A stretch of 64,000 nucleotides of DNA from Glaucostegus cemiculus (taxonomy: Eukaryota), in NCBI GenBank assembly GCA_976551045.1, contig CDPCPM010000063.1, positions 7,192,001 to 7,256,000 of the forward strand. The letters run 5' to 3'. Positions 1 to 64,000 of this stretch are shown piece by piece. Made by a program: the position numbers and the translations under genes. Below the pieces are notes generated by a model, which was not told the DNA's origin, did not search any database, and was given only the letters and a program-made list of their open reading frames with translations. The stretch's first letter is position 1, and each line of letters begins with the position of its first letter.

Positions 1-147
1 GTTTGGGAGAGATATGCCATCCAACAAGGTCCACGTTATGTTGCCAAGGACTTTAAACTTAACATTGGGGTAGAGCAAAGAGACTGAAGGCTCCCTTCCA
101 ACTGTTACTCTTTTACCTGACAAGTCTTTCCCCTCCTCTCTCTGCAG

Positions 148-230
148 GACAAAGTTCTAGTCCTGACTGAAAGCAATTTTGAGCAGACCATAGGCACGGG
201 TGTGACCTTTGTGAAATTTTACGCCCCCTG
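148..230 (+). CDS. TXNDC5: TXNDC5 (ERp46) third-from-last coding exon, start of the last thioredoxin domain
   Basis: Pyrimidine tract then ctgcag|GAC; reads [28 protein letters not shown](split codon); donor TG|gtaagt. Joins 3995 in frame to give FYAPWCGHC. Confidence 0.95.
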
Positions 231-329
231 GTAAGTCGGTTGTTCACCTGCATTGGTTCAGTAAATGACTACAGACCAGTTCACACCAGCATGTTATTCA
301 GAGAATTCCCAGCTGTACTACTGTGCTGG

Positions 330-1090: not shown

Positions 1091-1349
1091 AGTAGTCTGC
1101 TCCAGGTTGGAAACACCAGAGACTGCAGATGCTGGAATCTGGAACAACACAGTCTGTTGCAGGAACTCCTAAATATTCACCACTTGACTACCTGGTCTAC
1201 CTAGACCCTCAGTGGGATGGGCAGCCTCATAACTGAAAGTCACCTGTAGTCGGGAGCAGTGAGGAGAGAAGGAAAAGCCTGATGCATGTGTTTGGTTGTG
1301 CTGCTCAAGGTGGCACATGAATCAGGATCTTCTTATGAGACAATGACCT

Positions 1350-1550
1350 GGTTACAAACAATCTGCTGGAGGAACTCAGTGGGTTGAGCAGCATCTGTAG
1401 AGGGGAAAGAAATTGTCAATGGTTCAGGTTGAAACCGATGCAGGTGAATCCTGATGCAGGATCTCAACCTGAATCGTCAACCATTCCTTCCACAGATGCC
1501 GCTCGATATGCTGAGTTCCTCCAGCAGATCGCAGTCTCTGGTGTTTTCCA
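1350..1550. mobile_element. Palindromic Penelope-derived mini-element with degenerate hammerhead motif
   Basis: Inverted arms atctgctggaggaactcag / ctgagttcctccagcagat; ctgatgc-a-ggatctcaacct-gaatcgtc at 1451-1478. Confidence 0.7.
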
Positions 1551-1904
1551 ACCTGGATCAGACTACCTCAGCAAGGTTACATGATGAATATTTATGGCGT
1601 TGACTCGATGGGCCGAAAGGCCTGCTTCCATGCTGTACCTCTTGTAGCTCCAGCAGACTGGAGGGGCTAAGTCACCTAGACTTGGTATTAGAAATGTCAA
1701 CCACCAGTGAGCAGTGGCTCTGGGTTTGTACTCACGGAGCGAAGGCAGGATTGAATGAAGAAGCACCATACAACAGACACCTCCTCCTGGGCTAAGCTCT
1801 GACAGCTTCTGTAGAGAGGATGTCCGCACTGGGCAAGAGATTTGGGTTGCCAACAAACATTGTGTTAACTTTAGCTTTGGCTACTTAAAAACAAACTGAC
1901 GTTT

Positions 1905-3365: not shown

Positions 3366-3994
3366 TTGGCATTGACTAAGAGTCACAACCCTTTTAGATG
3401 TTCCTTCTGCTTTCTTCCTGATACAAATCTTCCTGATTCCAGACTCCCCAGAAGGGAAACATTGTCAGGTCCCCTCGAAATTTCATTGAATTTCTCAATT
3501 TCCTCCTCTGCTGTGTGAGTTTTTCTTCAAAAAAAGTTTCACACACAAGGCCGAGAGATGTGCCCGGATTTGCAGAGGTTCCTGCAAAGTTGAAAAGTCA
3601 TAGACTTCAGACACTCTCACTCTGCAGATTTTTTTTTGCCTTATTCAGAGAATTCTCTCCACCAGGTATTTCTGAACAGCACCTAGAAGAGACTTTTATC
3701 TGCTGGAGCCTTTCAGCAGGTTGAGCTGCATGTGTGAGGGGAAAAAGAATTTTCGATGTTTTGGGTTGAAACCCGCTGACTTCCGGCAGTTTGTTTGTTA
3801 CTCCAGATTCCAGCATCTGCAATCTTTTGAGTCTCTAGAGAAACTTTGATTTGAACTCTTAAGGGTCAGTGGTTGTAACCTTTTCGCATATGATTGGCAT
3901 CATAGTTAACGCAGACATTATGGGCTGAAGGCCCTGTTCTTGTGCTGTACTGTGTTCTGTATACGTTGTGTATTCAAACTCTCTCTGCTCACAG

Positions 3995-10019: not shown

Positions 10020-10480
10020 GGAACAAAAATAGAATGCAAATGCTGGAAATACCCAGCAGGTCAGGCAGCATCTGAGGAGCGAGAGAAAAAGAGAGACAGA
10101 ATTAACGTTTCAGGTCAATGACCTGTAATCAGAACTGGGAAAGAGAGAGTGGAGGAAAAATCATGGTTAAGTTGCTGAAAAGGTTTTGGAGGGGATGAAA
10201 AGGATAAAAGGAATATCTGTAATAGGCTGAGACAAGTGGGTCAGTTAGAGGGTGATTATGCTTCTTTGGATAATGTGTTGCCAATAACAAGGCTGTCAGA
10301 TGTGTCCAGCAGGTCAGGCAGGGTATATTAATAGAGGAACAACTGAGCCAAAATTACAGGTGGATAACTGGCAGCAGAAAAGGCTGGTTCTGATACAAAC
10401 AATTTAGAATTTGATTTCGAGTATGGAAGTCTACAAATGTGCCGAGATGGAATATGAAGTGTTGTTCATCAAACTTACAC
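10020..10480 (-). mobile_element. Penelope-like element 3' fragment (GIY-YIG C-terminus and pLTR with hammerhead motif)
   Basis: Minus-strand KFDEQHFIFHLGT resembles the PLE endonuclease end (KLEEQHLIFRLGT); hammerhead-like motif at 10102-10137; terminal gatgctgcctgacctgctg. Confidence 0.7.
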
Positions 10481-11645
10481 GGCTTTGTCAAGGGCAGATC
10501 TTGTCTGGCCAACCTGATTGAATTTTTTTTTTTGAAGAGGTAACAAAGTGTATCAATGAAGACAGGGCAGTAGATGAGATTTACATGGACTCTAGTAGAC
10601 AAATTGGTTAGGGCCCATGGGATCCAGGGCAAATTGGCAAACTGGACCCAAAATTGCCTTGCCAATAGGATGTAGAGGGCTGTTTTTGTGACTACATGCT
10701 ATGTAGTCATTCGTAATATACATGAATGATTTGGATGTAGATGCATGAGTCATGGTTAGTGAGTTCACAGATGACACAAAGATTGGTGGAGTTGTTGACA
10801 GTATGGAGGGCAGATTTTAGCTACAGGGTGATATTGATGTGATGGTGAAATTGGTTGAGAAATAGCAGATGGAGTTTACATCTGGTAAAGGTGAGGTGAT
10901 GTATTTTGGGCGTAGCGATGAGACTAGGACATACACCATAAATGGTAGGGTCCTAGGGAGTACTGAAGAGCAGAGGGACAACAATACTGTCTGTAAAAGT
11001 TCAGAGTATTGAAGGTGGCAGTGCTGTTAATAACATGTTTAAGAAGGCATATGGGATACTCGCCTTTATTAGTTGGGGGGCATTGAATACAAGAGCAGGG
11101 AGCTTGTGCTCCAACTTTATAAAACATTGGTCAGACCTCAGCTGGAGTACTGTGTGCAGTTCTGGTCACCACACTAGAGGAAGGATGTGATAGTGCTGGA
11201 GAGGGTGCAGAGGAGATTCCCCAGGATGGTGCCAGGGATGGAGCATTTCAGTCATGAGGAGAGGCTAGATCTGTTTTCCCTGGAGCAGAGGAAGTTAAGA
11301 GAGGACGTGATGTGTATAAAATTATGAGGGCTATAGATAGGATAGTCTGCAGGAAACTTTTCTCCATGTCAGAGCTGGATAAGGCTAGGGGCCATAGATT
11401 TAGGGTAAGAGGTAAAAGATTTAGAGGGGATCTGAGGGGGACTTTTTCATCAAGAGAGTGGTGAATACCTGGAATACACTGCCTGAGAGAGTGGTGGAAG
11501 CAGAGTCACTGTCTCATTTTAAGAAGTGTCGAAATGACCACTTAAATCGTCAAGGCGCAGAAGGCTATAGGCTGGAGGAGGGGATAAACAGAGACGGGTC
11601 TCCACTGGTTGGCATGGACATGGTGGGCCACATAGCTCTGACTTC
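10481..11645 (+). mobile_element. CR1 (HER1-like) LINE 3' fragment
   Basis: RT remnants [52 protein letters not shown]. Confidence 0.85.
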
Positions 11646-13267: not shown

Positions 13268-14130
13268 GGTGGCGTGGAGGTGCAGCAGTTAGTGCTGCTG
13301 TCCAACAGCTCCAGTAACCTGGGTTCAATCCTGATAGCTTGAATATTGAATTCTCCAATTTCAGGTAAACCGCTCCCTCTCTGTCCCTTTTCTCTCTCCT
13401 CCTGATCTACTCTACCCAGTTCTTCCTACAATCACCTCAGGCCCCCATCCTCTTTCCCCTCCCCCACTCACACCATCTGCCCATCACCCATGCATCCTCC
13501 TACTGGGTCCACTCCCCCAACTGTTCCCACCTGCCCACCCCACCCTCCTTTCCTATTGGATTCCATCATCTGCAGCCCTTTGTTGCCTCCACCAATCACC
13601 TCCCAGCTTCTGTCACTAGTTCCACTCTCCCCTCCTCCATTTGCCTTTCACCCCTCCTCACCTAGATCCACTTATCACTTGCCGGCTCTTCCTCCATCCC
13701 TTCCCCTCACCTCATTACACTGGCTATCTCCCCTCTTTCAGTCCAGATGAAGGGTCTCAACCTGAAACTTGGACTGTCCATTTCCCTCCACAGATGCTGC
13801 CTGACCCACCGAGTTACTACAGCTTCTTGTTTGTTGCTCTCAACCCTGACCTTGGGTGCTGTCTGTGTGGAGTTTGTACATTCTCCCTGTGACCCTGTGG
13901 GTTTCTCCCAGGCACACCAGTTTCCTCCCACATCCCAAAGACATGCAGTGAGTCATTAGACCACTGCAAATTGCTCCTCAGGGTTAGTGAGTGGCAAAAG
14001 AATCAAACAAAGGGGACAGCTGTTGGGCATGCAAGAGTGAATCCGTTGCAGGAGTGTGGAGAAATAAGTCAAGGGGAATGTGATTGCTCACCTGGGAGAT
14101 AGCATGCTCCCAATAGTCTCCTGTGTCAGA
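13268..14130 (+). mobile_element. V-SINE split by a Penelope insertion
   Basis: Head 13268-13334 ends in B-box gggttcaatcctga; the body resumes at about 13840 with tcaaccctgaccttgggtgctgtctgtgtggagtttg. Confidence 0.8.
13335..13839 (+). mobile_element. Penelope-like element 3' end with hammerhead motif and 10-bp TSD
   Basis: Starts with ORF end LNIEFSNFR*, then pyrimidine-rich UTR, hammerhead motif at 13739-13776; TSD tcaatcctga / tcaaccctga. Confidence 0.75.
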
Positions 14131-15352: not shown

Positions 15353-15481
15353 NNNNNNNNNNNNNNNNNNNNNNNNNNNNNNNNNNNNNNNNNNNNNNNN
15401 NNNNNNNNNNNNNNNNNNNNNNNNNNNNNNNNNNNNNNNNNNNNNNNNNNNNNNNNNNNNNNNNNNNNNNNNNNNNNNNNN
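15353..15481. other. Assembly gap (129 N) in BMP6 intron 5
   Basis: Run of N. Confidence 1.
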
Positions 15482-16499: not shown

Positions 16500-17135
16500 T
16501 CGCTGGCAATGACACAGTGAACAGTAGGGCCTGGGGAGTGTTGTAGAACAGAAGGACCTAGGAGTCCAAGCACATGGTTCACTGAAAGTGGCGTCGCAGA
16601 TAGACAGGGTGATGAAGGCGGCTTTTGGCACGCTGGCCTCCATCAGTCAGGGCACTGAGTACAGAAGTTGGGATGTTATGTTGCAGTTGTACAAGACGTT
16701 GGTGAGGCTGCATTTGGAATATTGTGTTCAGTTTTGGTCACCCTGCTACAGGAAGGATGCCAATAAGCTGGAAAGAGTGCAGAGGACATTTACAAGGATG
16801 TTGCCAGGATATGGGGGGCTGAGTTATGGAGAGAGACTGAGCAGGTTAGGACTTTATTCATTAGAGCATAGGAGAATGAGGGGTGACATTATAGAGGTGT
16901 ATAAAATCAAGAGGGGCATAGATAGGGTCAATATGCACAGTCTTTTTCTCAGGACTGAGGAATCAAGAACTGAGGGCAAAGGTTTAAGGTGACAGGGGAG
17001 GCATTTAATAGGAGCCCAAGGGACAAATTTTTCACCCAGAGGGTGGTCAGTATATGGAACGAGCTGCCAGGGGAAGTGGCTGAGGCAGCTACATTAGCAA
17101 CATTTAAAAAGGTACTTGGACAGGTACATGGATAC
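16500..17135 (+). mobile_element. CR1 LINE RT 3' fragment (preceded by a DeuSINE head at about 16215-16435)
   Basis: ORF 16588-16992: [42 protein letters not shown]. Confidence 0.88.
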
Positions 17136-18664: not shown

Positions 18665-19535
18665 TAGAAACGTGAAATAAAAATAGAAAATGCTGGAAAT
18701 GCTCAGCAGGTCAGGTGACATCTGTGGATAGAGAAACCCAACTGGAAAAGAGAGAAAACACGTTAACTTTAAGTTGTAGAGAGGATGGTGGAGGGATGGG
18801 TAGGACAAAGGGAATATCTGTGATAGGGTGAGGTCAGGGTTGCAGCGAGGATAAATTGCAGCGACCATCTGGGGGAAGCAGTCAGAGAGAAAGAAAATTA
18901 ACAAAAGCTATGAAACAAAGTGGCTTAGAGAATGAGAATACAAACAAAGGTGCAAAATGCAGTGCTGTATGCTCCTCTGCATACTTTGTATGTATGTGGT
19001 TGTGACAATAAAACTGATTCTGATTCTGACTTGCCTGGTAAGTCAGACTGTGCTAATGGGGAAAGAAAATGTAGCTGATGCCACAGATGAATAACCTACA
19101 GCAGAAGGAACCAGTTCTAAGGTAGAGAGAGTAAGTGAGCTCCCTCAAGTTGTAGAATTCACTGTCAAGTCCGGAAAGCTGAATGTGCCCACGAAGAAAT
19201 GAGGTGCTTTTCCTCATTGTAACAGTATCGAAGGCCAGAGAAAGATAGTGAGGGAGTGCAATGGAGAATTAAAATGGCAGGCAACAGACAGCTGAATCAC
19301 CCTAACTGAATGAACACAGTCCCCCATCTGCATTTGGTTTCGGGAGACTACACTGAACACAGTGCACTGGAGTGGAAGGAAACAATCCCTTCCTCACCTT
19401 CTCTGCAAGTTAAAATGAGCTAGTTTTCTCTCATTCCTACTTCTGATGAAGAGTCTTGGACCCGCCATGTTAACTCAGTTTCTCTTTCCACAGATGCTGC
19501 CTGACCTGCTGAGTGTTTCCAACATTTTGTTTTCT
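18665..19535 (-). mobile_element. Penelope-like element with GIY-YIG remnant and inverted terminal pLTR
   Basis: Minus-strand VACHFNSPLHS..EEKHLI at about 19200-19290; the pLTR at 18665-18770 is mirrored by an inverted copy at about 19400-19535 carrying ctgatgaa-gagtcttggaccc. Confidence 0.7.
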
Positions 19536-19719
19536 AACGTTTGGTTACACTGCTCCAGAAAGAATTCCACCTAAGGCAGCAGGCAATTCCACCAGAATCT
19601 AGCACGTTGTTTCCTATGACCCCTATGGATACAACACCATGATGAAATACAGTAGCTGTGGGGGGCAAAACTCAGTATACTCCATGGTACCAGATAGGAT
19701 ACCATGCTATCAGAATAAG

Positions 19720-28309: not shown

Positions 28310-28930
28310 TTGGCCTTCATAAATCAGTGCATTGAGTATAAAAGTTGGGAGGTCGTGGTGAGTTTGTACAGGACATTGATGAGGCCGCACTTGGAGTATT
28401 GTGTTCAGATTTGGTTGCCCTGCTATAGAAAAGATGTTATTAAACTGGAGTGAGTGCAGAAAAGATTTACAAGGATGTTGTCTGGACTTGAGGGACAGAG
28501 TTACAGGGAGAGGTGGCACAGGAAAGGGCTTTTTTCTCTTGGAGCGTAGGGGGCCGAGAGGTCATCTTATAGAGGTGTACAAAATCATGAGGGGCACAGA
28601 CAGGATGAATGCACTCAGTCTTTTTCCCCAGGGTTGGGAAATCAAGAACTAGAGGGCATAGGTTTAAGGTGAAAGAGGAGAGATTAATAAGAACCTGAGG
28701 GGCAACATTTTGTTTTACACAAAGGATGGTACATATGTGGAATGAACAGCTAAAGGAAGTGGTTAAGGCAGGTACAATAACAACTTTGAAATGACAGTTG
28801 GACAGGTACATGAATTGGAAAGGTTTAGAAGATTATAGACCAAATGTTGGCAAATGGGATTAGCTTGGATGGGAAATCTTGGTCAGCATGGATCAGTTGG
28901 GCTGAAGGGCCTGGTTTTGTGCTGAACAAT
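28310..28930 (+). mobile_element. CR1 LINE 3' fragment
   Basis: IEYKSWEVVVSLYRTLMRPHLEYCVQIW, RGHLIEVYKIMRG, CR1 tail. Confidence 0.88.
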
Positions 28931-31974: not shown

Positions 31975-32947
31975 TGGTCCAACTCCATTTACAAGTTCAC
32001 CGACATGGTGGTCCGAATCTGAAACAACGACAAGACAGAGTACAGGAAGGAGATAGAGAGCCTGGTGGCATGGTGTCAACGTCACCAAAGCAAAAGAGCT
32101 GGGCATTGACTTCAGGAAGCTGGGCAGAGTACATGCCCCTATATGTATCAATGGTGCTGAGGTGGAAACGATTGAGAGCTTTAAGTTCCTAGAAGTAAAT
32201 ATCACCAATAGCTTGTCCTGGACCAACCACATTGCTCTGGCCAAGAAAGTGCAGCAATGCCTCTATCTCCTCAGAAGGCTAAGAAAATTCAGCATGTCCC
32301 TGATGACCCACACCAATTTTTTTTATAGATGCACCATAGAGAGCATTATACTAATATGGCAACTGCTCTGCCCAAGATCGCAAGAAATTACAGAGGGTTG
32401 TGAACACAGCTCAGTGCATCATGAAAACCAGTCTCCCCTCCACTGACTCTGTCGATACTTCCCACTGCCTCAGGAAAGCAGCCAACATAATCAAGGACCT
32501 CTCCCACCCTGGTCATTCTCTCTGCTCCCCCTTTCCATTGAGCAGGCGATACAGAAGATGAACCCATGAACACATTATTATTCCTTTTTTTTTGCACTAT
32601 TTATTTTTGTAATTTATAGTAATTTTGTGTCTTTGCACTGTATTGCTGTTGTTAAACAACAAATTTCACGTCATATTAATCAGTGAAAATAAATCAGATT
32701 CTGAAGAGCTTGGGAACACGCACCACCAGGCTCAAGGACAGCATTGTTATCAGACTTTTGAATGGACCTCTTATATGATAAACGTGAACACTTGATCTCT
32801 CAATCTACCTCATTATTAACCCTTGCACCTTATTTGTCTACCTGCACTGCACTTTCTCTGTAACTGTACCACTATATTCTGCATTCTGTTATTGTTTTTC
32901 TCCTTTGTACAACCTCATTGTTGTTATGTTTGGAATGATCTGTATGG
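31975..32947 (+). mobile_element. Rex1/Babar LINE 3' fragment; its tail resumes at about 34115-34170
   Basis: NSIYKFTD, ESFKFLEVNITNSLSW, CLYLLRRLRKF, YRCTIESI. Confidence 0.8.
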
Positions 32948-32949
32948 AT

Positions 32950-34114
32950 TGGTAAATTGGTTTATTGTTTTGACATGTGAAAAAATTGTCTTGAATTCCG
33001 TTCATACAGATAATTTCATTACAACAGTGCATTGAGGTAGTACAAGGGAAAACAATAACAGAATGCAGAATAAAGTGCTACAGTTACAGAGAAAGTGCAG
33101 TGAAGGTAGACAATAAGGTGCGAGGTCAGAATGAGGAAGATAGTAAGGCCAAGAGTCCATCTTATCATACTAGGGAACCATTTAATAGTGTTATAACAGT
33201 AGGATGAAAGCTGTCTTTGAGGCTGGTGGTACCTGCTTTCAGGCTTTGTATCTTCTGCTCGATGGGAGAGGGGAGAAGAGAGGATGTCCGGGGTGGGTGG
33301 GGTCTTTGATTATGTTGGCTGCTCTACCCAGGCAGCGAGAAGTATAGACAGAATCCGTGGAGGGGAAGCTGATTTCCATGATGTGCTGAGCAGTGTCCAT
33401 GACTCTCTGCAGTTTCTTGCAGTCCTGGGCAGAGCAGCTGCCATACCAAGCCTTGATGCATCCAGGTAGGATGCTTTCTATGGTGCATTGATAAAAATTG
33501 GTGAGGGTCACAGGGGACATGCTATATTTCTTTAGCCTCCTGAGAAAGTAGAGGCGCTGGTGAGCTTTCTTGGCCTTGGCATCCACATGGTAGGACCAGG
33601 ATAGGCTACTGGTGACGTTCACTCCTAGAAACCTGAAGCTCCCAACCCTCTTGGCCTCAGCACTAATAATGTACACCGCCCGCTTTCCTGAAGCCAATGG
33701 CCAGCTCTTTTATTTTTCTGACATTGAGGGAAAGATTGTTGTCATGACACCATGTCACTAGGCTCTCTATCTCTTTCCTGTACTCCGATTCATCGTTACT
33801 TGAGATACCATCCACTACGGTGGTATCATCTGCAAACTTGTAGATGGAGTTAGAGCAGAATCTGGCCACACAGTCATGAGTGTATAGGGAGTAGAGGGCT
33901 GAGGACGCAGCCTTGTGGGGCACCAGTGTTGAGGATAATCGTGGTGGAGATGTTGCTGCCTATCCTTGCTGAATGTGGTGTGTTGGTCAGGAAGTCAAGG
34001 ATTCAGCTGCAAAGAGAGGTGCTGAGTTCCAGGTCTGAGTCTGGAGATAATTTACTTGGAATTATAGTATTGAAGGCAGAGCTGCAGTCAATAAACAACA
34101 GTCTAAGGTAGGTG
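32950..34114 (-). mobile_element. Rex1/Babar LINE inserted antisense into the tail of the same-family copy
   Basis: ORFs 33663-33923 ([19 protein letters not shown]) and 33239-33697 (QRLYFLRRL..CTIESIL..IIKDPTHPGH). Confidence 0.85.
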
Positions 34115-35054: not shown

Positions 35055-35230
35055 TTGGAGACACACGAGACTGCAGATGCTAGAATCTGAAGCAAAACAC
35101 AAAGCACTAGAGGAACTCAGCAGGTCAGGCCAGTGAAGATGAAGGGTCTTGACCTGGAACATCAGCTGTCCATTTCCCTACATAGATGCTGCCTGACCCA
35201 CTGAGTTCCTCCAGCGCTTTGTGTGTTGCT
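35055..35230. mobile_element. Palindromic Penelope-derived mini-element
   Basis: gaggaactcagcaggtcaggc / gcctgacccactgagttcctc; centre gatgaagggtcttgacctggaacatc. Confidence 0.7.
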
Positions 35231-35569
35231 GTATCCATTTCATTCCCCATTTCTCACGCCATGTGAAAAACCTGGCACATACCTCTAACGAATATCATCA
35301 GTATACACCCTCTCCATTTGTCGGATATTGTGTAAAATTTTCTTGGGATTGCACAACTCTCTCCTTCCAACCCATTCCACGCACTGAGTGGCTCTTATTA
35401 GAGATCACTTCTGCAGATAAAGGACAGCAAGGGACCAGTCATGGTTCTGGGCCATCCTCCATTCTGCTGGGCTTGGTCTCATGGCCCTGACCACCACCTG
35501 TAGCTTCTTCAGAAGTTTCATCCAGTTTAGGCTTACATGACAACCTGCAGCTTTGTTACAGTATATGAA

Positions 35570-36399: not shown

Positions 36400-36895
36400 G
36401 TGAATTGCTCCCACTCTGCCCCTTTTCTCTCTCCTCCTGATCTACCCAGTTCTTCCTACATCCCCCCAGCCTCCCATCATCGTGTTTCTTTCCCCTCCTC
36501 CACCCACTCCCTGCCCATCAACTACACATTCCTGCCACTATCCCCATTTGCCCTCCCTTACTCAATTCCATGCTCCACATTCTTCTCCTGTCAACCATTA
36601 TCTGCAGCCCTTTGTTGCCTCCACCTATCACCTCTATGCCCCTGCTGCTAGTTCCACTCTCTCCTCCATCTGCCTATCATTCCTCCTCACCTGCATCCAT
36701 CTGCCGCTCTTGCTGCATCCCTTCCTCTCATCTCTTTACACTGGCTATCTCCCCTCTCTTTCAGTCCAGGTGAAGGGTGTCGACCCAAAACATCAACTGT
36801 TCATTCCCCTCCACAAAGACTGCCTGATCTGCTGAGTTCTTCCAGCAGCATGTTTGTTGCTCCAAATTCCAGCATCTGCTGACTCGTGTCTCCAG
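36400..36895 (+). mobile_element. Penelope 3' UTR/pLTR with hammerhead motif (36762-36799)
   Basis: Colinear with 13370-13839; terminal ttccagcatctgc. Confidence 0.7.
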
Positions 36896-37999: not shown

Positions 38000-38210
38000 A
38001 CTGGAGACACAAGAGACTACAGACACTGGAATCTGGAGCAACACATAAGATGCTGGAGGAACTTGGTGGGTCAGGCAGCAACTATGGAGAGAAATGGACA
38101 GCTGACATTTCAGGTGGACACCCTTCATCAATCCAGATATTGACTGTTCATTTCCCTCTATAGATGCTGCCTGACGCACTGCGTTCCTCCAGCATCTTGT
38201 GTGTTGTCCC
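38000..38210. mobile_element. Palindromic Penelope-derived mini-element
   Basis: aagatgctggaggaac / gttcctccagcatctt arms; minus-strand ttgatga-a-gggtg-tc-cacct-gaaatgtc. Confidence 0.7.
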
Positions 38211-39289
38211 AAACATTGTACTCCTCACATCCACATGGATGGTGGGAGCTCACAACTCTGCTGGTTACCTCACTGGGCTCCAGGAGAAACCATGAACAAA
38301 TGCAGACACAGTTGCCTTGCTCTATGAATGAAAAGATCATGGAAAATTCATGAAGGTGAAAATCCACCACAGCCAAGACATTGGGCTTCTGTGATTAGAT
38401 GCAGAGCAGTGTTAGTGGTGCAAGAAAGCAAAGTTTGTATAAAAACCACAATGTACCACTATGGCCCCAAGTAGAAATAGTTACTGCTTCAATTGGAAGG
38501 AGTTGGGTCTGCAGGTTCAAGCACAATTTTGAAAGAACTGCTGCATTATTTCAAAAACTTCTTTGGAAATGATAAGCTGAACATGCCTGTACCTCAGTCA
38601 GGATATTTCTTTACCCCAAAGCATTGTCATGCATTGTTTCTGGAAAAGCCTTACTGCCTTGAATTTTAATTCTGCTGGAGACTTCTTTACTGAGCAGAGT
38701 GGAGTGTGTAATGGTTGAGTGCAGTTCCCCTCAATAATCAACTTGCAACCCCCAGTCCATGCAGAGAAGCTCTCTTGCTCTTACAGAGAAAATGCATTGA
38801 TCATACCTATTGCTCAGGAGAATTGCTTGACATGGCTGGAGCTGCCAAAATATTTAATGCTTTGTTTTAATTTAACTGTTATTGAAGACACTGTTGAAGT
38901 AGCTTAAAGTTCATTGCTTTGTTTTACAAAAAAATCCTTCTGTTCAAGTGACTTTACTAAATAAACAAGTACATAATTTGATGAAATATTTTACAACGCC
39001 AGCAACTTCAAAATGATCTTCAGCACGCATCCTGGGTGGGCAGCGGAAGGCAGCAATTGCTAAGTACACAGTATCTATTGACACAAACCTAAAAGGGAAA
39101 TACAAGGATCTGACTTGGAAGTTTAAGGGCTTTCCTGCCCTTTACACAGCAGCTGCAGTTTCAGATGATCCTTTCACTAAGAAAAAGACCAAAAAATAGT
39201 CCAAATCCACAACAATGTTGGCATAGAACCTCTCTGTTGATAAAGGGGGGAGAGGGGGGGAGACCAGTGTGAGTTTCCAAGTCAAACAC

Positions 39290-39680: not shown

Positions 39681-40644
39681 GAAAAGGCGTAAAAGTCCAC
39701 CAGGCTCCTGTTTACATTGCTAGACAGCAGTACTGTATCAGTATGAGAAAGACAGAGGACAGGGCAGCATCACATTAGGTCCAGAATCAAGTGCAACTGC
39801 CTGGACTGACTCCAGAAAACCTCAGCCACTGCAAGCACTGGGTATGGTGCTTCATGCTGGAAACACATCCCCAACACCAGGCACTGGAGCTGAGGTTTCT
39901 GCGATAAAGCAGCACAATATGTTACCTTAAAACAAGGCAATGGGGGCAGTCATCAGAATCATACTTGGGGCTTCTTCCTTGCTATTCGCAAGTCACCAGA
40001 ATAAACTGGTATTTGGTAGAAACTCACCCCCAGCTGGTAAAGGTAAGTGTGCTGTAGAGTGACGCATTCTGCCTCAGAAATCTCCCCCTACCTTCTCTGC
40101 TAACTTGTTTTCACTTTCTCAGTTCTGACAAAGGGTCTTTGACTTGAAACTCTGTTTCTCTCTCCACAGATGCTGCCTGACCTGAGTTTTTCCAAATTTT
40201 TCTGTTTTTGTCTTGTTTCACTGGCGTCTAGCTAATGCTTTATGAAGGTTTAATGCTACTCCTTACAATTGCAATCAATGCCTCTAATTATAAAACCAGC
40301 TCATCAACTTAACCTGCAATTTTCAAAGACGTGTTTGCGCCGATCTGGGGGAGAATTCATCTCTGATAGCACACATTAAACATACCCCGTTGTAGTTTTG
40401 TTCGTTGGACTCAGCTGGAGTCAATGGAAGCACATTTCAGAAGCAGAACTCACTTCTACAGCACGGAAACAGGCCCCTCGGCCCAACTTTTGCTGATAAT
40501 TGTCACAGTCAACACTCCCAAGGATGAATTTCTCTGCCCAAACCTGCCTCTTACTTAGTCCAGTTAAAGTACAAAGTGATGTGTTATGGGAGGACAGTGT
40601 CTGGCCACTTGACTTTGAATCCTTTTCATGCCTGGCTGCAGCAT

Positions 40645-42260: not shown

Positions 42261-42979
42261 TTTTATTAAATTCAGGCACAGGTTGCAGAGCTTGGAGTAT
42301 GGCTCACTGTCTGCACCCAGTCACTGCTCAGTGGCTCTGTCACAGCTCATAGTAACAAGCACAGCCCCCAATTTAGGCCCGTCTGTTGGTCCTGCTACAG
42401 GCAAAAACCCAGAGACGAGCTGATCAGATCACCTGCCAAATGGTTGCTGGGCAGAGATCCAATGGAACAGATTGTGGCTTTTAACACCCGGGTTCTTTGA
42501 TGAAACCCAGAGTGCGTGTGAGTGGGAAAATATCCTACTTTTGGACTCATCTGGATTGGGCACAAGATTGTAAAGAGAAGACTGGAACACTGCAATGGCT
42601 CCTCCTGCAATGCAGCCCATGTTATAGGCACTGCTATCCACACCCCTGATCGTTTGTTTCCTCCACAGCCAGCACACCACATCTGGAGTGTGTACTGTGT
42701 GTAGAGGTGCACTGCACCAACTCATCAAGGGTTTGTTGACAGCACCTCCCAAACCCGCGACCTCTACAAGGGACAGGGTGGCACGTGCATGGAAACGCTC
42801 CCACTTCCAAGTCCAACACCACCCCATCTCTTCTCAATTCCTCCACTGGCACCAAATCAAACAGGTGGACCCCCCACCCGTTGGCACCAATAGCACCTTC
42901 ACCACATAGATTGCAAGGGTTCAAGGTGGCATCCACCACCACCTTTGAGGGCAATTCAAATGGGCAATAGTAGTGAAAA

Positions 42980-43560
42980 AAAGCATTCATCAGGGCATTG
43001 AGTATAGGAGTTGGGACATTATGTTGCAGTTGTACAAGTCATTGGTGAGGCCGCACTTGGAGCACTGTGTACAGTTTTGGTTGCCCTGTTATAGCAAGGA
43101 TGTGGTTAAACTAGAAAGAGTGCAGAGAAGATTTATGAGGATGTTGCCAGGACTAGAGGGCCTGAGTTATAGGGAGAGGTTGGCCAGGCTAGGTCTTTAT
43201 TCCTTGGAATGTAGAAGAATGAGGGGCAACCTTATAGAAGTGTTTAAAATTATGAGAGGCATAGATAAGGTGAACAGTAACAGTCTTTTCCCCAGGGTAG
43301 AGAAATGCAAAACTAGGAGGCATACATCAAGGTTGAGAGGGACCCGAGGGTGGTGAGTATATGGAATGAGTTGCCAGAGGAAGTGGTCGAGGCAGGTACA
43401 ATAGTATCAGTTAAAAAGTACTTGGATAGGTACATGGAGGGGTGGGGCTTGGAGGGATATGGACCGAGAGGAAATTGGGACCAGCTGGGTGGGAATCATG
43501 GTCAGCATAGACTGGTTGGGCTGAAGGGCCTGTATTCGTGCTGAATAGCTCTGTGACTCT
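42980..43560 (+). mobile_element. CR1 LINE 3' fragment
   Basis: ORF 42973-43356 GIEYRSWDIMLQLYKSLVRPHLEHCVQFW..RGNLIEVFKIMRGIDKV. Confidence 0.88.
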
Positions 43561-45770: not shown

Positions 45771-46214
45771 TGATAGTCACAGCTGGTCAGATGTGTGGCT
45801 ATGTTGGGTAACAGTTCTCATAAGACAGCTCCTGGCACGAGGTGATAAGGGAACATTCTCAAATAGCAGGGATCTGATCCTTGTAAAACAAACACAACAA
45901 CACTTGCAACATCACCTGGCAAAATGAGCAACTTCCAAGGAATGCCTGTAGCCAGAACCAGAATTGGCACTGCAGTACAAAATGTAACATCTGGTATTGT
46001 AACATGTGAACAATCAGTATTTCCTCTTATGTTCAGTAGTTCTAACTAAATGAAGATATTCCTCCAAGAGTTATCATCTATACTAGGAAGTCAAACCAAA
46101 AACAGACACTGCCTCTTACTCACTCGCACACTGCCCCAAAAGAATAGAATTTTCTTCAAATATTCAATTGCACACATCTCAGTTAGATCAAATTAAGGAA
46201 TCAGAATAGTGCAA

Positions 46215-46410
46215 ATCAAAAAGCCTAAATATGTTGGAAATCTAAAATAAAAATGCTGGCAATATCTGTGGGAATATCAGGCTGCATCTGTGGGAAGAGA
46301 AATAAGGTTAATGGTTCAGGTCAAAGACTTTTCTGATGAAGGGTTTTCAACATGAAAACATTAACTCTGTTTTTCTTCCCACAGTTGTGGCCTCACCTGA
46401 GTATTTTCAT
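46215..46410. mobile_element. Palindromic Penelope-derived mini-element
   Basis: ctgtgggaaga / tcttcccacag arms; ctgatgaagggttttcaacatgaaaacatta at 46333. Confidence 0.6.
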
Positions 46411-48009
46411 TAAGGAATCAGATTAAACTAGATTATTTAAATTAGTGTCAGCAATAATACAGCAAATGGTAAGGTGCATTGCCTGTGACCCGATCAACCC
46501 CACTTTTGATTCCTTTTGGCAGAGGCGATCTAAATGGCCTCTTGTGCCACAAGTGCTCTATACTTCAGTTGCATTAAACTGTGTCCAAGCTCATTTACAA
46601 CCTGCCTTGCTAGTAAAGAGAACACTCTTAACGGAGAGACCTTTTTCAGCAGTGCCATGATTTTAAACCTTCTCAAACCCTCCTTCAGTCTTGATTATTG
46701 CCATTTCTCTGACCCTCCCCAATACAGTCTTCCAAGATCTTAGTGCTCCTCTCATTTTTGCACATTTCCCATTTTAAAATCACTTCACTATTGACCACTG
46801 TACCTTCAGCTGTAGGCGCGCTGTGCTATGGAATTCCCTCCTTCAACCTCTCTGCCCTCCCGTCTCTCATTTAAGCAGCTCCCAAGACGTTGGCCAACTG
46901 CCTTGGTATCTCCAGATGTGGCTCAGTGTCAACTTTGCCACATTATAACTGTCACCATAAAGGCAGCTTGGGATGTCCTGAAAGGGCACTCAATATAACA
47001 CAACTCTTTTGTTAAATGACTCAAGACACTTTTCTACCTGAAAGCTGTCACATAAGTGGAAGCCTCCGTCATCTATACAAACTTCCACATCATTTCAAAT
47101 GTTAACCCACTGTTGCTTAACAGGGACAATTGGATAAAAGGATTTTGGTGCCCACAGGGATATTCCCATGAAGGGTTTTATTTGTGTTAACTCCGCCTGT
47201 TACCCTTCAAACAGATTGTTTTGTCTTCTTCACTTACTAATGAAACTTTAACTAGGATCACTACAAATGTATTCACCATCAATGTCAGTAATCGATAATC
47301 CATTACCTTGCGTGGCATTTCCACACACACCACTGGATGCCTCATTAAGCTAAACAAGAAGCTGTTGGCTTTGAGATTCCACTGATAGTAAATGCTACGA
47401 AAGTGGCAGCAATAAAAGTGTTTCTGGTTTGCTTCCTGCTCATAAAATTTTATGCTAGACATTAAATGGCCGGATCTGCTTCTAACAAGCTGCATGCTGC
47501 TCAACCCAAGCTCCTCAAACAGCTACAGTCATGTTCAAGGTATTTAAAAAATGTTAAGTGACAGCTCATCAACCCATAAAGGCGTTAACCCTTTCACCAA
47601 ACCATTTGTTTAGTACTGGCATCCTTGTTAAAACAGCAAAAAGTTGGCTATCCCACAAGTAGGTAACAATGGAGAGGATTGCATTGCGCTGGGGTTTAAC
47701 TCGAGAAATATTTTGAGCATGAGGTTCAGTTTTGGGCTGCAATTTTTTTTCTCTTTCAGAAAAAAAAGGTGACTTCCTTTTGCTCAGTGTCAGAGGGCCG
47801 GCATACAGCCAGTCAGATGTACAATTATGTCCATGTTTTTCTGCTTTACAAGTTGAGAAAAAGCAGGGCCCATGACAACTGGGTGGAAACCTGGGCTCAG
47901 CCACATGATTAATCACTTGCCGTTGCCTGCATCTTTTCTTTATATAACGGAGATATTTTGTTCCATATGGGGTTGACCAAGTCCTCCACACTGGGAGTGG
48001 TTATTGATC

Positions 48010-53377: not shown

Positions 53378-53555
53378 ACACCGCAGATACTGGAAATCTG
53401 AAATAAAAACAGAAAGTGCTGGAAACACTCAGGTAGCATCTGTGGAAAGAGAAAAAAAAGAGTTAAAGTTTCATGTCAAAGGGCCTTTGATCTGAAATGT
53501 TAACTTCATTTCTCCCTCCACAGATGCTGCCTGTGTTTCCTATATTTTCATTTTG
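53378..53555. mobile_element. Palindromic Penelope-derived mini-element
   Basis: gcatctgtgga / tccacagatgc arms; centre tcaaagggcctttga followed by tctgaaatgttaac. Confidence 0.65.
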
Positions 53556-54419
53556 ATACCAAAGCGTAGACAGAATTTTAATACAGCCAAATCTCTACTG
53601 CTATAAGATACCTCATATTAGATTCATAGAGCAATGCAGCATAGAAACAGGCCCTGTAGCCCATAGGTGTATGGTACCCATTGGGTTGAAGGGCCTGTTT
53701 CCATGGTGTATGGATCTATGGTACACAACTCACCCCAGTTCTGGGCGTACCCAGTCCGCTGTCAAATTGAAGGAGTGAGTTTATAGAATCTATATCTCGA
53801 TAAGTGCCCTAAATGTTGTGTAGAAACAGGTACTATGTCAGCAGTGTGTTTTCTCTGTTTTTATAGTTATTGTTTAAATGAACAATGGCACCAAAGCATA
53901 AATCTCTCATCTCCACAGTCCCTCCACTGGTGAGGACAGATATATGAAAAGAACAAATGTTTAACATTCCTTGCTTAAAAAAAGCTAAGAAAAGCATTGT
54001 TTTACCACTTGAGTGCTGTGAAACATAAACTTAGAATGACTTGGCTGGTGTTGGGTGGAGATGGGAAACGTGCCCTTTCCCACATCTAACTGGTACAATA
54101 GATAGATTTAAGATATCTTTATTAGTCACACAAACATCAAAACACACAGTGAAACACAACTTTTGTGTAGAGTGTTCTGGGGGCAGCCCGCAAGTGTCGC
54201 CATGCTTCTGGCACCAACATAGCATGCCCACAACTTTATAAGTAAAGGCAATGAGAACTACCAAAGTGAAGTTGTTAATTTAGAAGTCTGACAGAAGGTC
54301 CAACTACAGTTCATTTGGACACTGTGACCCTGTGTCCTTGGGAGGAAATGGATAATTGAAAAGAGCCAGGAATGGCTTCTGCTCTCTTACCAATGTTTAC
54401 AGATGCATCACAGATTAGT

Positions 54420-56880: not shown

Positions 56881-57770
56881 TTTTTTTTATTAACAAAATA
56901 AACTTTATTCATAATAAAAACTATATACAATAATAAAACAGTTCAAACCTTTACATTCAATTACAGTTCCATTCTTAGTGTTACCTTTTTATATATACAA
57001 AACACAGCACCGATGCCACTCGTGTGGCTCCCTGGGGTGATACCCCCATCCCATATTTACAACATTTGAGGGGCTTCCTCGCCTAACCCCACCCCTCCCC
57101 TTTCTGTGGCAGCAGAACCCTAAACTGTGGCCCTTCCCCACCGCACCTTTGCATTAGCTGTACCTATCTTCAGTGCATCTCTCAGCACGTTCTCCTGCAA
57201 CTTGGAATGTGCCAGTCGGCAGCATTCTCCCACGGACATCTTACAGTGCTGTAAGATCAACAAGTTCCGGGCAGCCCAAAGGGCATCCTTCACGGAGTTG
57301 ATGACCTTCCAGCAGCAGTTGATGTCCGTCTGTGTGTCTCTCCCCGGGAACAGCCCATAGATCAGAGAATCCTCTGTTACGCAGCTTCTGGGGATGAACC
57401 GCGACAAGGACCTTTGCATCTTTTGCCACACCCTCCTCGCAAACCTACAGTCTACAAAGAGGTGGGTTACTGTCTCGTCCCCAGTATTGTCTTCCCAGGG
57501 GCAGTGCGCACTGAGACTGAGGTTCCACCTGTGCAGGAGGGATCTGACTGGGAAGGCCCCTCTCACCGCCAGCCAAGCGAAGTCTTGGTGCTTGTTGGCG
57601 AGTTCTGCTGATGAGGCATTCTGCCAGATGGTCTGGACAGTCTGCTCAAGAGAACCACCCCACCACGTCCACCGAGTCCTTCTCCCGCAGTGCCTGCAGG
57701 ATGTTCCATGCTGACCACTGCCTGATGGACTTGTGGTCAAAGGTGTTGGTCTGGAAGAACTTTTCCACCG
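56881..57770 (-). mobile_element. Tx1/L1-clade non-LTR retrotransposon, 5'-truncated, with zinc-knuckle region, 3' UTR, AATAAA and poly(A)
   Basis: WQNASSAELANKHQDFAWLAVRGAFPVRS..CPWEDNTGDETVTHLFVDC..WKVINSVKDALWAARN; stop at 57120; aataaa and A-tail at 56881-56910; one frameshift near 57650. Confidence 0.85.
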
Positions 57771-58859
57771 AGCTTCCAGATTCTTACTGAGTAAAAACTA
57801 GGGTTCGAGTCTGAGCAGTTTGGCTCAGTATCACTCCTGGAGGTACACTACTCACTAAGGGAGATCAAACGTCCTTTTTATAAGATTTAGCGAATGCCTT
57901 TGAAATAGGTCTTTTTGGAGGCTTTCCGTGAAACTCTTGTTGTAGCCACTAAACATTCAATGCAAGAACAGACAGGCATTCAACTTGGTTTCTGAAATTC
58001 TGAACTGACTTTCAATAGTACTGAATTTCAGAGTCGAGTTCAAAGCAAATTCACTGGCACATTGAGTTTAATGCGGAGGGTGAACCGAGATTTCTTAAGA
58101 CCAGCAGAATTAAGCCATTCGACCCATCGAGTCTGCTCCGCCTTTGATCATGGCTGATTTTTTTTTCCCCCCAACCCCATTCTTCTGCCTTCTCCCAGTA
58201 ATCCTTAACCCCCTTGACCAATCAAACCTCTTCCTGCTGTACTGCCCTTGACTGGATGCTCACTTGTACAGTGTTGTCTTGGTGAGATGGTGACCGATTC
58301 CAAGGCTAATCGCTGTTTTGCAATTACTTTCTTCAATGATCATGACCATGTTTCAATCAAAGCATGACAGCCTTTCAGTGATAGTATATGCATGTTACAG
58401 GTATCCATTACCAATTGCGAGTGGCAGCCAACATGTTGGCTTCACAAGATCAGGATTAGAATGTTCGCATTTACCAGGATTCTGATGCAAATCAAACCAT
58501 GTTCCATTAGTGTCAATCAAACATCATTGACCTAGGACATCAACTCTCCTGTCTCCACAGATGCATCCGGATGTGACAAATAATTCTGGAATGTTCCATT
58601 TTTATATTTGCTTTCCAACGTCCCTTGTAAACAAACATTCTTGGTTCCATATGGTACATAAATCCATGAATAACCTGGTGTGCAAACAAATACACAGCAG
58701 CTTCAACAAGGCCATCAGCATATCATTATGAGTCAGTTTTCTAGGTATTTTCTGAAGAGGCTAAAAATGGGGGCAGGGTATGAGGTATACTCTGGTGAGT
58801 AAAGCTGTAAGGCTTCCCAAACCATTGGACAGGAGCCACATTTGGTTTACCACTTTGTT

Positions 58860-61654: not shown

Positions 61655-62300
61655 AGAGACACAAAAGACTGCAGATGCTGAAATCTGGAGCAGCAAATGA
61701 TCTGCTGGAGGAACTCAGCGGGTCAGGCAACATCTGTGGGAATTGTCAATGTTTTGGGTTGAAACCCTGCATCAGGACTGGGTGTGGAGAGGTGAGATGG
61801 CCAGTATAAAGAGGAGAGAGGGAGGGGTGAGATAGGTACTGCAAGGTGATTGGTGAACCAGGAAAGGGTAAAAGATGACAGGCAGATGGAGCTAGATAGG
61901 GGAGGGGGAAGAGGTGTAGTTGGGAGACTGAATGACAGGTGAAGGCAAACAAAACAAAAGGCAAGGAGCCAGGTGGAGGGAGGGGTGGGTGAAGGCAGAG
62001 ACAGCTGGTGGAGGATGGTAAGCGGGAACACAAAGGCTACCAGTGCTGGACAAGTGAGAAAGGTGATCATGGGAACCATTAGGGGAAAGGTGGAGGGCAG
62101 ATGGAACCGGACTGGGGAGTGAGAGGGATCCAGTGGATAAAATGTGTGAGTAGTAGGTGGGTAGAACCAGGAGGGGGATATGAGAAAGGGCACAGAAATG
62201 GGAGGATCGGAGGTGGGTTGGAAGGAGGGGGATGGGAGAAAACACAGGAGGGACGAGTTAGCTGAAATTAGAAAATTCAATGTTCAATACTAGGTTAGAT
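61655..62300 (-). mobile_element. Penelope 3' end (ORF end LNIEFSNFS*, UTR, pLTR with hammerhead motif at 61743-61780)
   Basis: Same ORF terminus as at 13335; minus-strand cagtc-ctgatgc-a-gggtt-tc-aaccc-aaaacatt-gacaa. Confidence 0.72.
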
Positions 62301-63109
62301 ATTACTGAGTACAGATCAAAGTTAACCTGACCTGAAGAACTAACATTTTTATAAATGGTTTGGCTTTTTAATGCTTTAAAATGTCCAATAAATAATCTTC
62401 CTTGTGTAATAACTTCACCATTATAGGTTACATCACTGATGACTGTATGTTCTCCCACTCAGCCTGATATGCTTTGATGCAAAAATGAATGGCTTTTATG
62501 CCATAAAATGTTAGCTCAAAACTTCTCTAAACTTATCACCCACTTTGCATTCCTGTCAAGCTGAGAAATAAATTGGCACCAGTGGAAACTGGGTGATAAA
62601 TCTGTAAACATAGCTGCTCACAATTTGACCTCTTCAAGGAGAAAATTGGACAACTTCGTTGTGAACAAACTGCCACAGGTTTTTGATGGTGCGGAAGGTG
62701 ACCGAAGATGTTTACATGCATCATGAGATAAACAGTTTGCAATTCGCCCACAGGGAAACTGTGTCTTTGCCTCTCAGAAGAGAGGTTTGTGGTAATGAAA
62801 GACGGCTTCAGACCTACTGGTGAATCAGGGAGTTTGCACAGGTTCTGTGTTGTGAGGACAATGTTCAGACAAGGAATCCAGACACCATCATATTTGGATA
62901 CAGCTGAGCACATACTCTTCTGGTTTTACAACAGATTCAGAGTTGTTCACTGATTTACACATAGCCTGTTTAAATGATCTTGCTGTAAATACCAGTCCCC
63001 TGCATTTCCCATTTCCACCTACCCAAGAGGCTCAAATGCATTAACTAGACAAATGTTCCAGTAATCAGGAAGTGAGGCTCTAGCAGAGTCCATTGCACAT
63101 GAGAAAAAA

Positions 63110-63298
63110 AAAGATGCAGATGCTGGAAATCTGAAGTAAAAACAGAAAATGCTGGAAACATCAGCAGGTCAGACAGCATCTATCCAAAGAGGTTTAACAT
63201 TTCTGGTCAAAAACACTTCTGTTGAAGCATTAGCTCAGTTTCTCTTTCCACTGCAGGTGCCTGGCCTGCTGAGTGTTTCCAGCATTTTCTGTTTTTAA
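63110..63298. mobile_element. Palindromic Penelope-derived mini-element with collapsed centre
   Basis: aaaaacagaaaatgctggaaaca / tgtttccagcattttctgttttt arms. Confidence 0.7.
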
Positions 63299-64000
63299 GA
63301 CAATTGCACATTTGTGCAATAAAACAAGTAACAATGTGCATTTAAATAGTGCCTTTAATGTAAAATGAACCCCCTCTCCCCCAGCAGTTCAGGGACATTA
63401 GAGCTAAAGGAAATATCAAAGGGACAAGAGGCAGGTTTTAGAGAGGACCTTAAGACAGGTGGAGATCGAGATGCCTGGAGAACTTCACAGTGGGCAATCG
63501 AGTCTGGAGCTGAATGACAGAAGAGGGAAAAAAGGAAAGAGGAATAGGGAATAAAAATTCAGTACGTAGGGAAGGGCCAAGGGGCAAGAGAGGGTGAAAC
63601 TGGTTGTGGGATTGGAAGTACAGGAACAGGAAGGGTACAGGCCACCAAAGGATGCAACACCGAGGATGAGTATTTTACATAGAAACAGGGGCAAGGGAGA
63701 CTATGAATGGGACCTTGGTCTCCCGTCAATTCGGCCTAAGCTGACGGAAGGTTTGATGGAGGTGGAATCAGTGTTGGGGTCCAAGGAGAAGTGCAAATCT
63801 GTTCCCCCATCTGGTATTGCTGATATTTATCCTTCCAACAACAATTGCTGTAACCTAGTCAGAATCTCTGATGCAGGAGCATGCTCTGTACAATTCTCCT
63901 CATGAATAAGATCAGGAGGGGCATAATCAGAGTAGACAGCCAGTATCTTTTTCCCCAGGGTTGAAATGTCTAATACTAGAAGGCTGCATTAAAGGTGAGA

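Follow-up and report, generated by a model that had tools for sequence, protein, structure and literature searches.

The site at positions 13739-13776 of the window, the whole 64,000-nucleotide stretch of Glaucostegus cemiculus DNA that was analysed, is best read as a mutated copy of a hammerhead motif within a 505-base repeat that is likely the 3' end of a Penelope-like element (PLE), and this copy is predicted to be inactive; the probability of this reading was put at about 0.85. The family is real and of an already known kind, as the first-pass annotation had said in placing it among the minimal type I hammerheads described from PLEs (PMC4209133). What is new is that the motif is now seen in a lineage absent from the 2014 survey, no cartilaginous fish being among the names in the available Table S1 and Fig. 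S3 of that work.

Structure of the focal insertion and its hammerhead

The complete focal insertion is about 505 nt long and 5'-truncated, occupies 13335-13839(+) and ends at +68 from the predicted cut site. Its layout is an ORF end, a pyrimidine-rich region, the hammerhead and a short tail. The last ORF codons, PDSLNIEFSNFR-stop, lie at 13330-13368(+) and resemble 62250-62300(-) and 19130-19300(-) at the DNA level; the pyrimidine-rich 3' region, the body of the pseudo-LTR, lies 5' of the hammerhead at 13369-13738(+), and the tail spans 13777-13839(+). The left target-site duplication (13325-13334(+)), located inside a common SINE-like repeat, is identical to the right one (13840-13849(+)) at 9/10 positions, and joints corresponding to the empty site, from 13331-35 to 13849-57, were present in all four public runs described below. 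Over 478 alignment columns the focal insertion is 75% identical to the copy at 36407-36862.

Re-reading of the window gave exactly the letters originally reported for 13739-13776. Direct reading together with the family letters indicates a decayed minimal type I hammerhead of subfamily A on the forward strand, with stem I at 13739-43/13772-76, core positions C3-A9 at 13744-50 (U4A at 13745), an extra A at 13751, stem II with a 4-nt loop at 13752-55/13760-63, GAAA at 13764-67, stem III at 13767-70 (G16.2U at 13769), N17 at 13771 (G here, C in the consensus) and a predicted cut between 13771 and 13772. Stem I is perfect, with 5 bp paired, and the core has three faults, namely U4A, G17 and the lost 15.2-16.2 pair. 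Against a minimal-hammerhead descriptor of 21 constraints, composed after Cervera and de la Pena, the site scored 3 violations; 12 Markov shuffles of the window yielded sites this good at an average of 0.67 per shuffle. Since three violations correspond to the chance level, the focal site alone proves nothing, whereas the family is beyond chance.

The predicted fold of the focal copy lengthens stem I to 8 bp across the core (-14.1 vs -8.3 kcal/mol for the hammerhead stems; z=-1.8). Because of G17, the missing 15.2-16.2 pair, U4A and this core-covering fold, the focal copy is likely a fossil, a dead ribozyme. The private changes at 13769-13771 are those that extend stem I from 5 to 8 bp, and either chance or quasi-palindrome template switching may apply to them.

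Copies and subfamilies in the window

The nine homologues listed by the first-pass annotation were all found on direct checking of the window, with ends that differ by a few bases. A profile built from the 10 listed copies recovered these and 12 further arms at E<=0.004, and the best match in the reversed-window control had E=2.2. With edges set by eye, the window holds 14 insertions, of which 8 are inverted pairs and 6 are solo copies, besides some stray tail pieces; the family takes up about 4.3 kb, or 6.7% (roughly 7%) of the window.

Majority consensuses of the window arms, built from hand-anchored rows, define three subfamilies: A, with the core CAGAUGA; B, with the core CUGAUGA and U17; and C, with the core CUGAUGC. 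The single consensus proposed earlier holds for the minimal type I form but merges these three subfamilies, and the core of A is CAGAUGA rather than the canonical CUGAUGA.

Subfamily A includes, besides the focal insertion, a solo copy with a long tail at 36400-36893(+) (hammerhead at 36762-36799, with U4A), an inverted pair at 35059-35231(+) whose forward arm runs from U4A at 35137 and which has a 13-nt target duplication, and an inverted pair at 38001-38211(-). Subfamily C comprises an inverted pair with A9C at 1354-1551(+), which has an extra tail piece at 1105-1168(-), an inverted pair at 3690-3840(-) found as a profile match, and a solo copy at 61656-62291(-) with an A9C hammerhead (61743-61780), an ORF end and a 13-nt target duplication. 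Within 1105-1551, two C tail ends, at 1105-1168 and about 1535-1551, point outward on the two sides of the inverted pair, and about 185 nt of the DNA between them is other sequence.

In subfamily B, the solo copy at 10033-10500(-) has the best-kept hammerhead in the window (10099-10137, changed only by G8U) and, by eye, an endonuclease-like peptide near 10440-10480(-). A long inverted pair at 18675-19540, with its junction outside the hammerhead, consists of a minus arm that contains a frameshifted endonuclease-like remnant at about 19140-19390 and has its hammerhead deleted, and a plus arm with a hammerhead at 19438-19476. The solo copy at 40085-40211(+) has lost stem III and the cut site to a 6-nt deletion, and the inverted pair at 46206-46412(+) has a 10-nt target duplication. 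Three B insertions are additional to the original list: an inverted pair centered on stem II at 53385-53560(-), a short solo copy that begins within stem II at 58525-58600(+), and an inverted pair with a 9-nt target duplication at 63101-63302(+).

Under the descriptor, the in-window consensus of B shows no violation, that of A one (U4A) and that of C, which was built from 2-4 arms only, three. The best single site, in the copy at 10137(-), has 1 violation, for which 8e-4 sites are expected per window; no shuffled window held a site below 3 violations, and a complete match is expected by chance 2e-5 times per window. No site in the window is free of violations, in agreement with the earlier statement that every copy is lesioned. 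The B consensus carries the CUGANGA...GAAA, NUH core A departs from it only by U4A and C by A9C, 10 of 11 arms have A as the extra base between positions 9 and 10.1 (position 9.1), and stems I and II can pair, with the motif closed by stem I (93 of 122 cells paired in decayed arms). The published PLE consensus has a U-rich flank, CUGANGAH, G10.1-C11.1 and GAAAN-palindrome-NUH (Cervera and de la Pena 2014, Fig. S3 as available in PMC4209133), and the B and A consensuses, with 0-1 violations, fit this form.

Hammerhead-region identity between subfamily consensuses is 0.71-0.82 and that of the adjoining tail 0.69-0.76, so the tail is barely less conserved. None of the 10 Rfam matches in the window at E<=10 was to a hammerhead family; the weak microRNA and plastid matches on inverted pairs were discarded as below threshold. 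A reading frame that stays open across the hammerhead in subfamily A was likewise set aside, as it is not retained in B and the search for homologues found none. DNA patterns of the family had no match in the viral contigs or metagenome contigs searched.

Stem pairing and covariation

Covariation of the stems between copies, as claimed in the first-pass annotation, did not exceed that in shuffles in either of two alignments. In the alignment of 19 arms, in which MAFFT displaces the B rows by one column, two-sided change was observed in 2 of 9 pairs compared with 1.9 in shuffles (328 of 500 as high), and the covariation score was equally high in 124 of 500 shuffles. Both permutation tests were also non-significant for the hand-anchored alignment of 18 rows, one of which was mis-anchored and contributed no pair cell and in which G-U pairs inflate the two-sided statistic; with 18-19 decayed arms, the power to detect covariation is low. 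Sliding the stem partners cut pairing from 63% to 23-54%.

Stem II reads GGGU/ACC(C/U) in all three subfamilies. The covariants cited for it turned out to be single-copy changes or CpG decay, with no compensatory difference between subfamilies in this stem, and the fifth stem II pair that had been drawn would close a 2-nt loop; it is better assigned to the loop, which then measures 4 nt (5 nt in B) on a stem of 4 bp. The sole compensatory pair is 2.1:1.1, which is C-G in A and C and U-A in B and represents one event. Differences between the copies are mostly decay, not covariation.

The non-significant covariation, the 8 inverted pairs among 14 insertions, the core changes in two of three subfamilies and the folding of the consensus, which for A is predicted to favor an inactive rod (-12.4 vs -10.2), would all suit a hairpin-type, MITE-like DNA repeat in which the likeness to a hammerhead is incidental and the near-palindrome acts at the DNA level only. 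This explanation is nevertheless very improbable, given the rarity of a full descriptor match by chance, the extra base 9.1, G10.1 and palindromic 15.2-16.2, which match the published PLE form, the variable target duplications of 9-13 nt, and junctions that differ in every inverted pair, which implies that there was no single MITE master.

Decay and inherited core variants

In eight arms of subfamilies A and C, 29 of 32 consensus-CpG positions were lost, 26 of them as TG or CA, which bears out the suggestion that many lesions lie at CpG; the loop CpG site in C is CA in 4 of 4 arms and may be fixed. Contigs were also compared from four public runs, representing four organisms and four studies, with 14,519 to 68,751 contigs per run, SINE-matching ones included. 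The best run contained 0.26 of the query words and none reached half, so the runs represent relatives or low-coverage data, and their summed depth does not equal copy number.

At 13769 the four runs had G at 0.48-0.57 and A at 0.39-0.51, and at 13771 they had C at 0.59-0.67 and T at 0.31-0.40; the splits at these two positions and at 13759 and 13763 follow the pattern expected of decayed CpGs. The run letters at the four positions restore stem II, ACGU and C17, and once they are substituted into the focal hammerhead, U4A is the only violation left. The loop-less ACGU stem III described at the outset is borne out in that its palindrome is regained in the contigs of the runs and in the window arms when the CpG pattern is undone.

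Against the CUGAUGA of the first-pass consensus, U4A would count as a private lesion of the focal copy; it is instead inherited and common to subfamily A, being present in 3 of 3 A arms that retain position 4. The consensus of loose contig ends upstream of 13772 likewise has U4A as its majority letter in runs X3, X5 and X12 (361-518 contigs, overall agreement 0.52-0.55); in X1 it has U. The loose contig parts are unaligned to the focal base, and therefore the reference did not impose U4A. A9C was present in 2 of 2 subfamily C copies. Published natural variants of the hammerhead core, in the sources as available, include U3-A8, A6C, U4C and U15.1-A16.1, and no relevant report of CAGAUGA, CAGANGA, CUGAUGC, A9C or U4A with hammerhead ribozymes was found among the open-literature matches listed. 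As the subfamilies with U4A and A9C spread all the same, their insertion likely did not depend on full-speed cleavage, and their multiplication likely did not require cutting.

There is only a slight chance that the focal copy, or the U4A subfamily generally, has remained catalytic and serves the host at this locus. The perfect stem I would be compatible with this, and U4C reportedly keeps enough activity in vivo for a viroid, according to the part of that literature available, so that position 4 may tolerate change. G17 and the loss of the ACGU palindrome, however, are private to the focal copy when it is compared with the contigs of the four runs, the predicted fold buries the core, the decay follows the CpG pattern, and no dimer partner lies nearby, as there were no tandem (same-strand, adjoining) copies among the profile matches in the window.

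Evidence for a probable Penelope-like origin

The insertion is likely the 3' end of a PLE, as judged from its sequence, because endonuclease-like ORF ends lie upstream, target duplications are 9-13 nt long, inverted pairs are present and a tail of about 30 nt is found on one side. The earlier designation of the repeat as PLE-derived agrees with this anatomy and with peptide remnants recognized by eye; it gained no RT domain and no database match.

Four ORF-end remnants were located upstream of hammerheads on the same strand: the focal one, those at 62290 and 19150 and, less clearly, that at 10470. DNA alignments of these ends scored above at least 96.8% of random window segments for 4 of 6 pairs, and for 2 of 6 they did not. 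Read by eye across frameshifts, the remnant at 19140-19390(-) contains PVHCVQCS, ETKCR, HSVR, VACHFNS and GLDSEFYNLR. This longest remnant has CxxC, R, H, H, E and N in the order of PLE endonucleases, an assignment made by eye and prompted by recall, with the YIG deleted; PLE endonucleases are described as having the CCHH and the R, H, E, N layout (PMC8557442, in the text available). The focal ORF end is accordingly likely, from its letters, to be the C-terminus of a PLE GIY-YIG endonuclease.

Database searches with the remnants were negative for PLEs. Pfam gave no PLE match, and neither homologue searches, whose negative outcome weighs little, nor a representative protein search returned a PLE protein; the single match in the latter was rejected as an unrelated repetitive protist protein. 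The best result of an atlas search (0.76) was not a PLE and is a lead at most, and a search of viral loci found none. Upstream of the copies examined there was no RT domain, RT remnant or intact ORF.

Target duplications scoring at least 7 were detected at 6 of 15 loci compared with 6% of 398 control pairs (p=1.5e-4); at these six loci, with edges set by eye, they are 9-13 nt long and of variable length. Truncation at the 5' end with an adjoining inverted copy is seen in the 8 inverted pairs among 14 insertions, and opposite-strand joints were seen in all four runs. The 3' ends are bimodal, about 30 nt apart (+67/+68/+70 vs +98/+99/+99 in subfamily A), with the long ends bounded by consensus length, and in 6 of 8 inverted pairs one arm is longer by at least 24 nt. 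The tails of the inverted pairs point outward. A tail of 30-40 nt at one end only is given as a PLE signature in the published descriptions available.

All three subfamilies retain a polypyrimidine-CAG followed by ATG (13783-13796; ATG at 13794), after which a short frame stays open; this is possibly the 3' splice site (acceptor) of a PLE 5' intron together with an ORF start. In subfamily B a branch-point-like UUAAC overlaps the predicted cut site.

It is also conceivable, at a low probability, that each copy is one monomer of a non-autonomous family, tandem retrozyme or SINE-like, which has its own hammerhead and no direct descent from PLE ORF ends. Short, non-coding copies are in the majority, and retrozymes averaging 363 bp and related to PLE pseudo-LTRs are described from one chondrichthyan genome in the available text of 10.64898/2026.07.22.740005. 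Against this explanation, the window is without tandem units, four copies extend upstream into ORF-end remnants, 5' ends are variable, and the one-sided tail and inverted pairs are marks of PLEs.

Inverted pairs and their junctions

Both arms end at or before the 5' edge of the hammerhead in 7 of 8 inverted pairs, and the same is true of 1 of 6 solo copies (p=0.016 for junction clustering, a post hoc test on 14 insertions). In these seven pairs even the longer arm breaks off at -20 to -34 relative to the cut site, within the 38-nt motif, and their junctions show overlap in three cases, filler in three and a flush joint in one. The counter-example is the pair at 18675-19540, with a junction about 85 nt upstream.

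Depth drops about fourfold immediately upstream of stem I in all four runs, which fits the clustering of junctions and could equally reflect subfamilies with other upstream sequence. Loose ends at 13739 were rejected as proof of a preferred truncation, as a short deletion lies immediately 5' of that point in the focal copy. Opposite-strand joints at 13772-75 were not accepted as proof that cleavage defines the ends: alignments stop at the private mismatches of 13769 and 13771, and 4 of 7 inverted arms continue well beyond the cut. Candidate causes of the junctions include joining of cDNAs through the stems of the motif, hairpin-induced stalling of the RT, and elimination of long inverted repeats. 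No report combining PLE, hammerhead and template switch was found in the open literature searched.

Comparison with known hammerhead elements

The motif resembles the minimal hammerheads of metazoan PLEs, as described in the available text of PMC4209133, in its short stem I, in CUGANGA with one extra base and G10.1, in GAAA-C-G-U-H without loop 3 and in the U-rich upstream flank, as well as in its position 3' of the ORF and its occurrence mostly as single truncated copies and opposite-strand pairs. Stem II, with 4-5 bp, is at the short end of the range in that source. The cores given there are CUGANGA or UUGANAA, with no U4A or A9C; the descriptor of that survey fixed the core, and searches with CUGANGA fixed would overlook the U4A and A9C subfamilies. 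The very short palindromic stem III and the PLE association are also features of the dimer-acting hammerheads of Lunse, Weinberg and Breaker 2017, as summarized in the review PMC6765202, and a palindromic stem III is considered to suggest dimer formation and low activity (PMC4209133 and PMC6765202, in their available text).

In the green anole Poseidon PLE (PAc), as far as described in the available text of Frangieh et al. 2024 (PMC11167929), the hammerhead likewise lies in a pseudo-LTR upstream of two tail-defining 3' ends. Cleavage there is protein-dependent and insertion is unaffected by core mutants, two RT start sites are used, and both strands are nicked and extended; the targets are AT-rich as here, and priming on both strands would yield inverted structures. 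The ORF of PAc begins in stem II, 26 nt before the cut, in contrast to the ATG shared by the present subfamilies, which follows a splice-acceptor-like signal and lies 17-22 nt downstream of the cut.

Vertebrate non-LTR retrozymes (Li, Clavereau and Pollet 2026, 10.64898/2026.07.22.740005, in the text available) are similar in having a type I hammerhead in PLE-related repeats, including one chondrichthyan, and differ in being tandem units, whereas the copies in the window are scattered, occur singly or as inverted pairs, and have ORF ends. According to the same text, 8 of 9 Xenopus retrozyme dimers tested did not cleave.

Proposed mechanism

Under the PLE reading, the loop-less ACGU stem III in the RNA of a master element would form only between two hammerhead copies, and the paired hammerheads would cleave weakly after C17 or U17, probably assisted by protein. 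The PLE protein would then nick AT-rich DNA, and reverse transcription would begin at one of two tail sites. Copying would usually end early, producing solo 3' fragments or inverted pairs, followed by neutral decay. The cleavage, nicking and copying steps are inferred from published PLE work. The near-palindromic 38-nt hammerhead hairpin is likely to be a site of stalling or a site at which two cDNAs primed on either side of a break are joined.

A further and speculative proposal, to which we would give perhaps one chance in a few, is that the Penelope hammerhead is in part no longer a ribozyme: the U4A and A9C subfamilies would have been amplified to very high numbers, and the motif may have been kept as a self-complementary pad for the joining of cDNA. 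The cDNAs from both strands of one break, one from each RT start site, would then form short palindromes with their tails outward. If true, this would explain why PLEs retain hammerhead-shaped sequence and how inverted insertions originate. The sister subfamilies with canonical, U4A and A9C cores represent a natural experiment on the purpose of the PLE hammerhead, and the numerous short hairpin insertions may be relevant as a source of double-stranded RNA within host transcripts.

Neighboring features

The SINE-like repeat split by the focal insertion, at 13268-13334 and 13840-14000(+), is presumably of the HE1 type; ARAGORN detected no tRNA in it, and further copies lie near 1959, 4343, 20446, 48493 and 55224. 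A 225-aa frame at 57123-57797(-) matches zf-RVT (Pfam E=3.9e-12), and we take it to be the 3' end of an L1/Tx1-type LINE. Fragments of a LINE 3' ORF at 33242-33709(-) and 32057-32446(+) are inverted relative to each other and 78% identical over 217 nt; the former matches Pfam ALKBH8_N (E=1.3e-12), a family known to match LINE remnants. Many other LINE 3' fragments, among them those at 16528-16992, 42949-43356, 11078-11526 and 28324-28930, are presumably CR1-like. A thioredoxin-like peptide at 130-234(+) (Pfam E=0.012, below the cut-off) reads, in our estimation, like a TXNDC5-type exon, so that the window may begin inside a host gene. A run of 129 N is located at 15353-15481.
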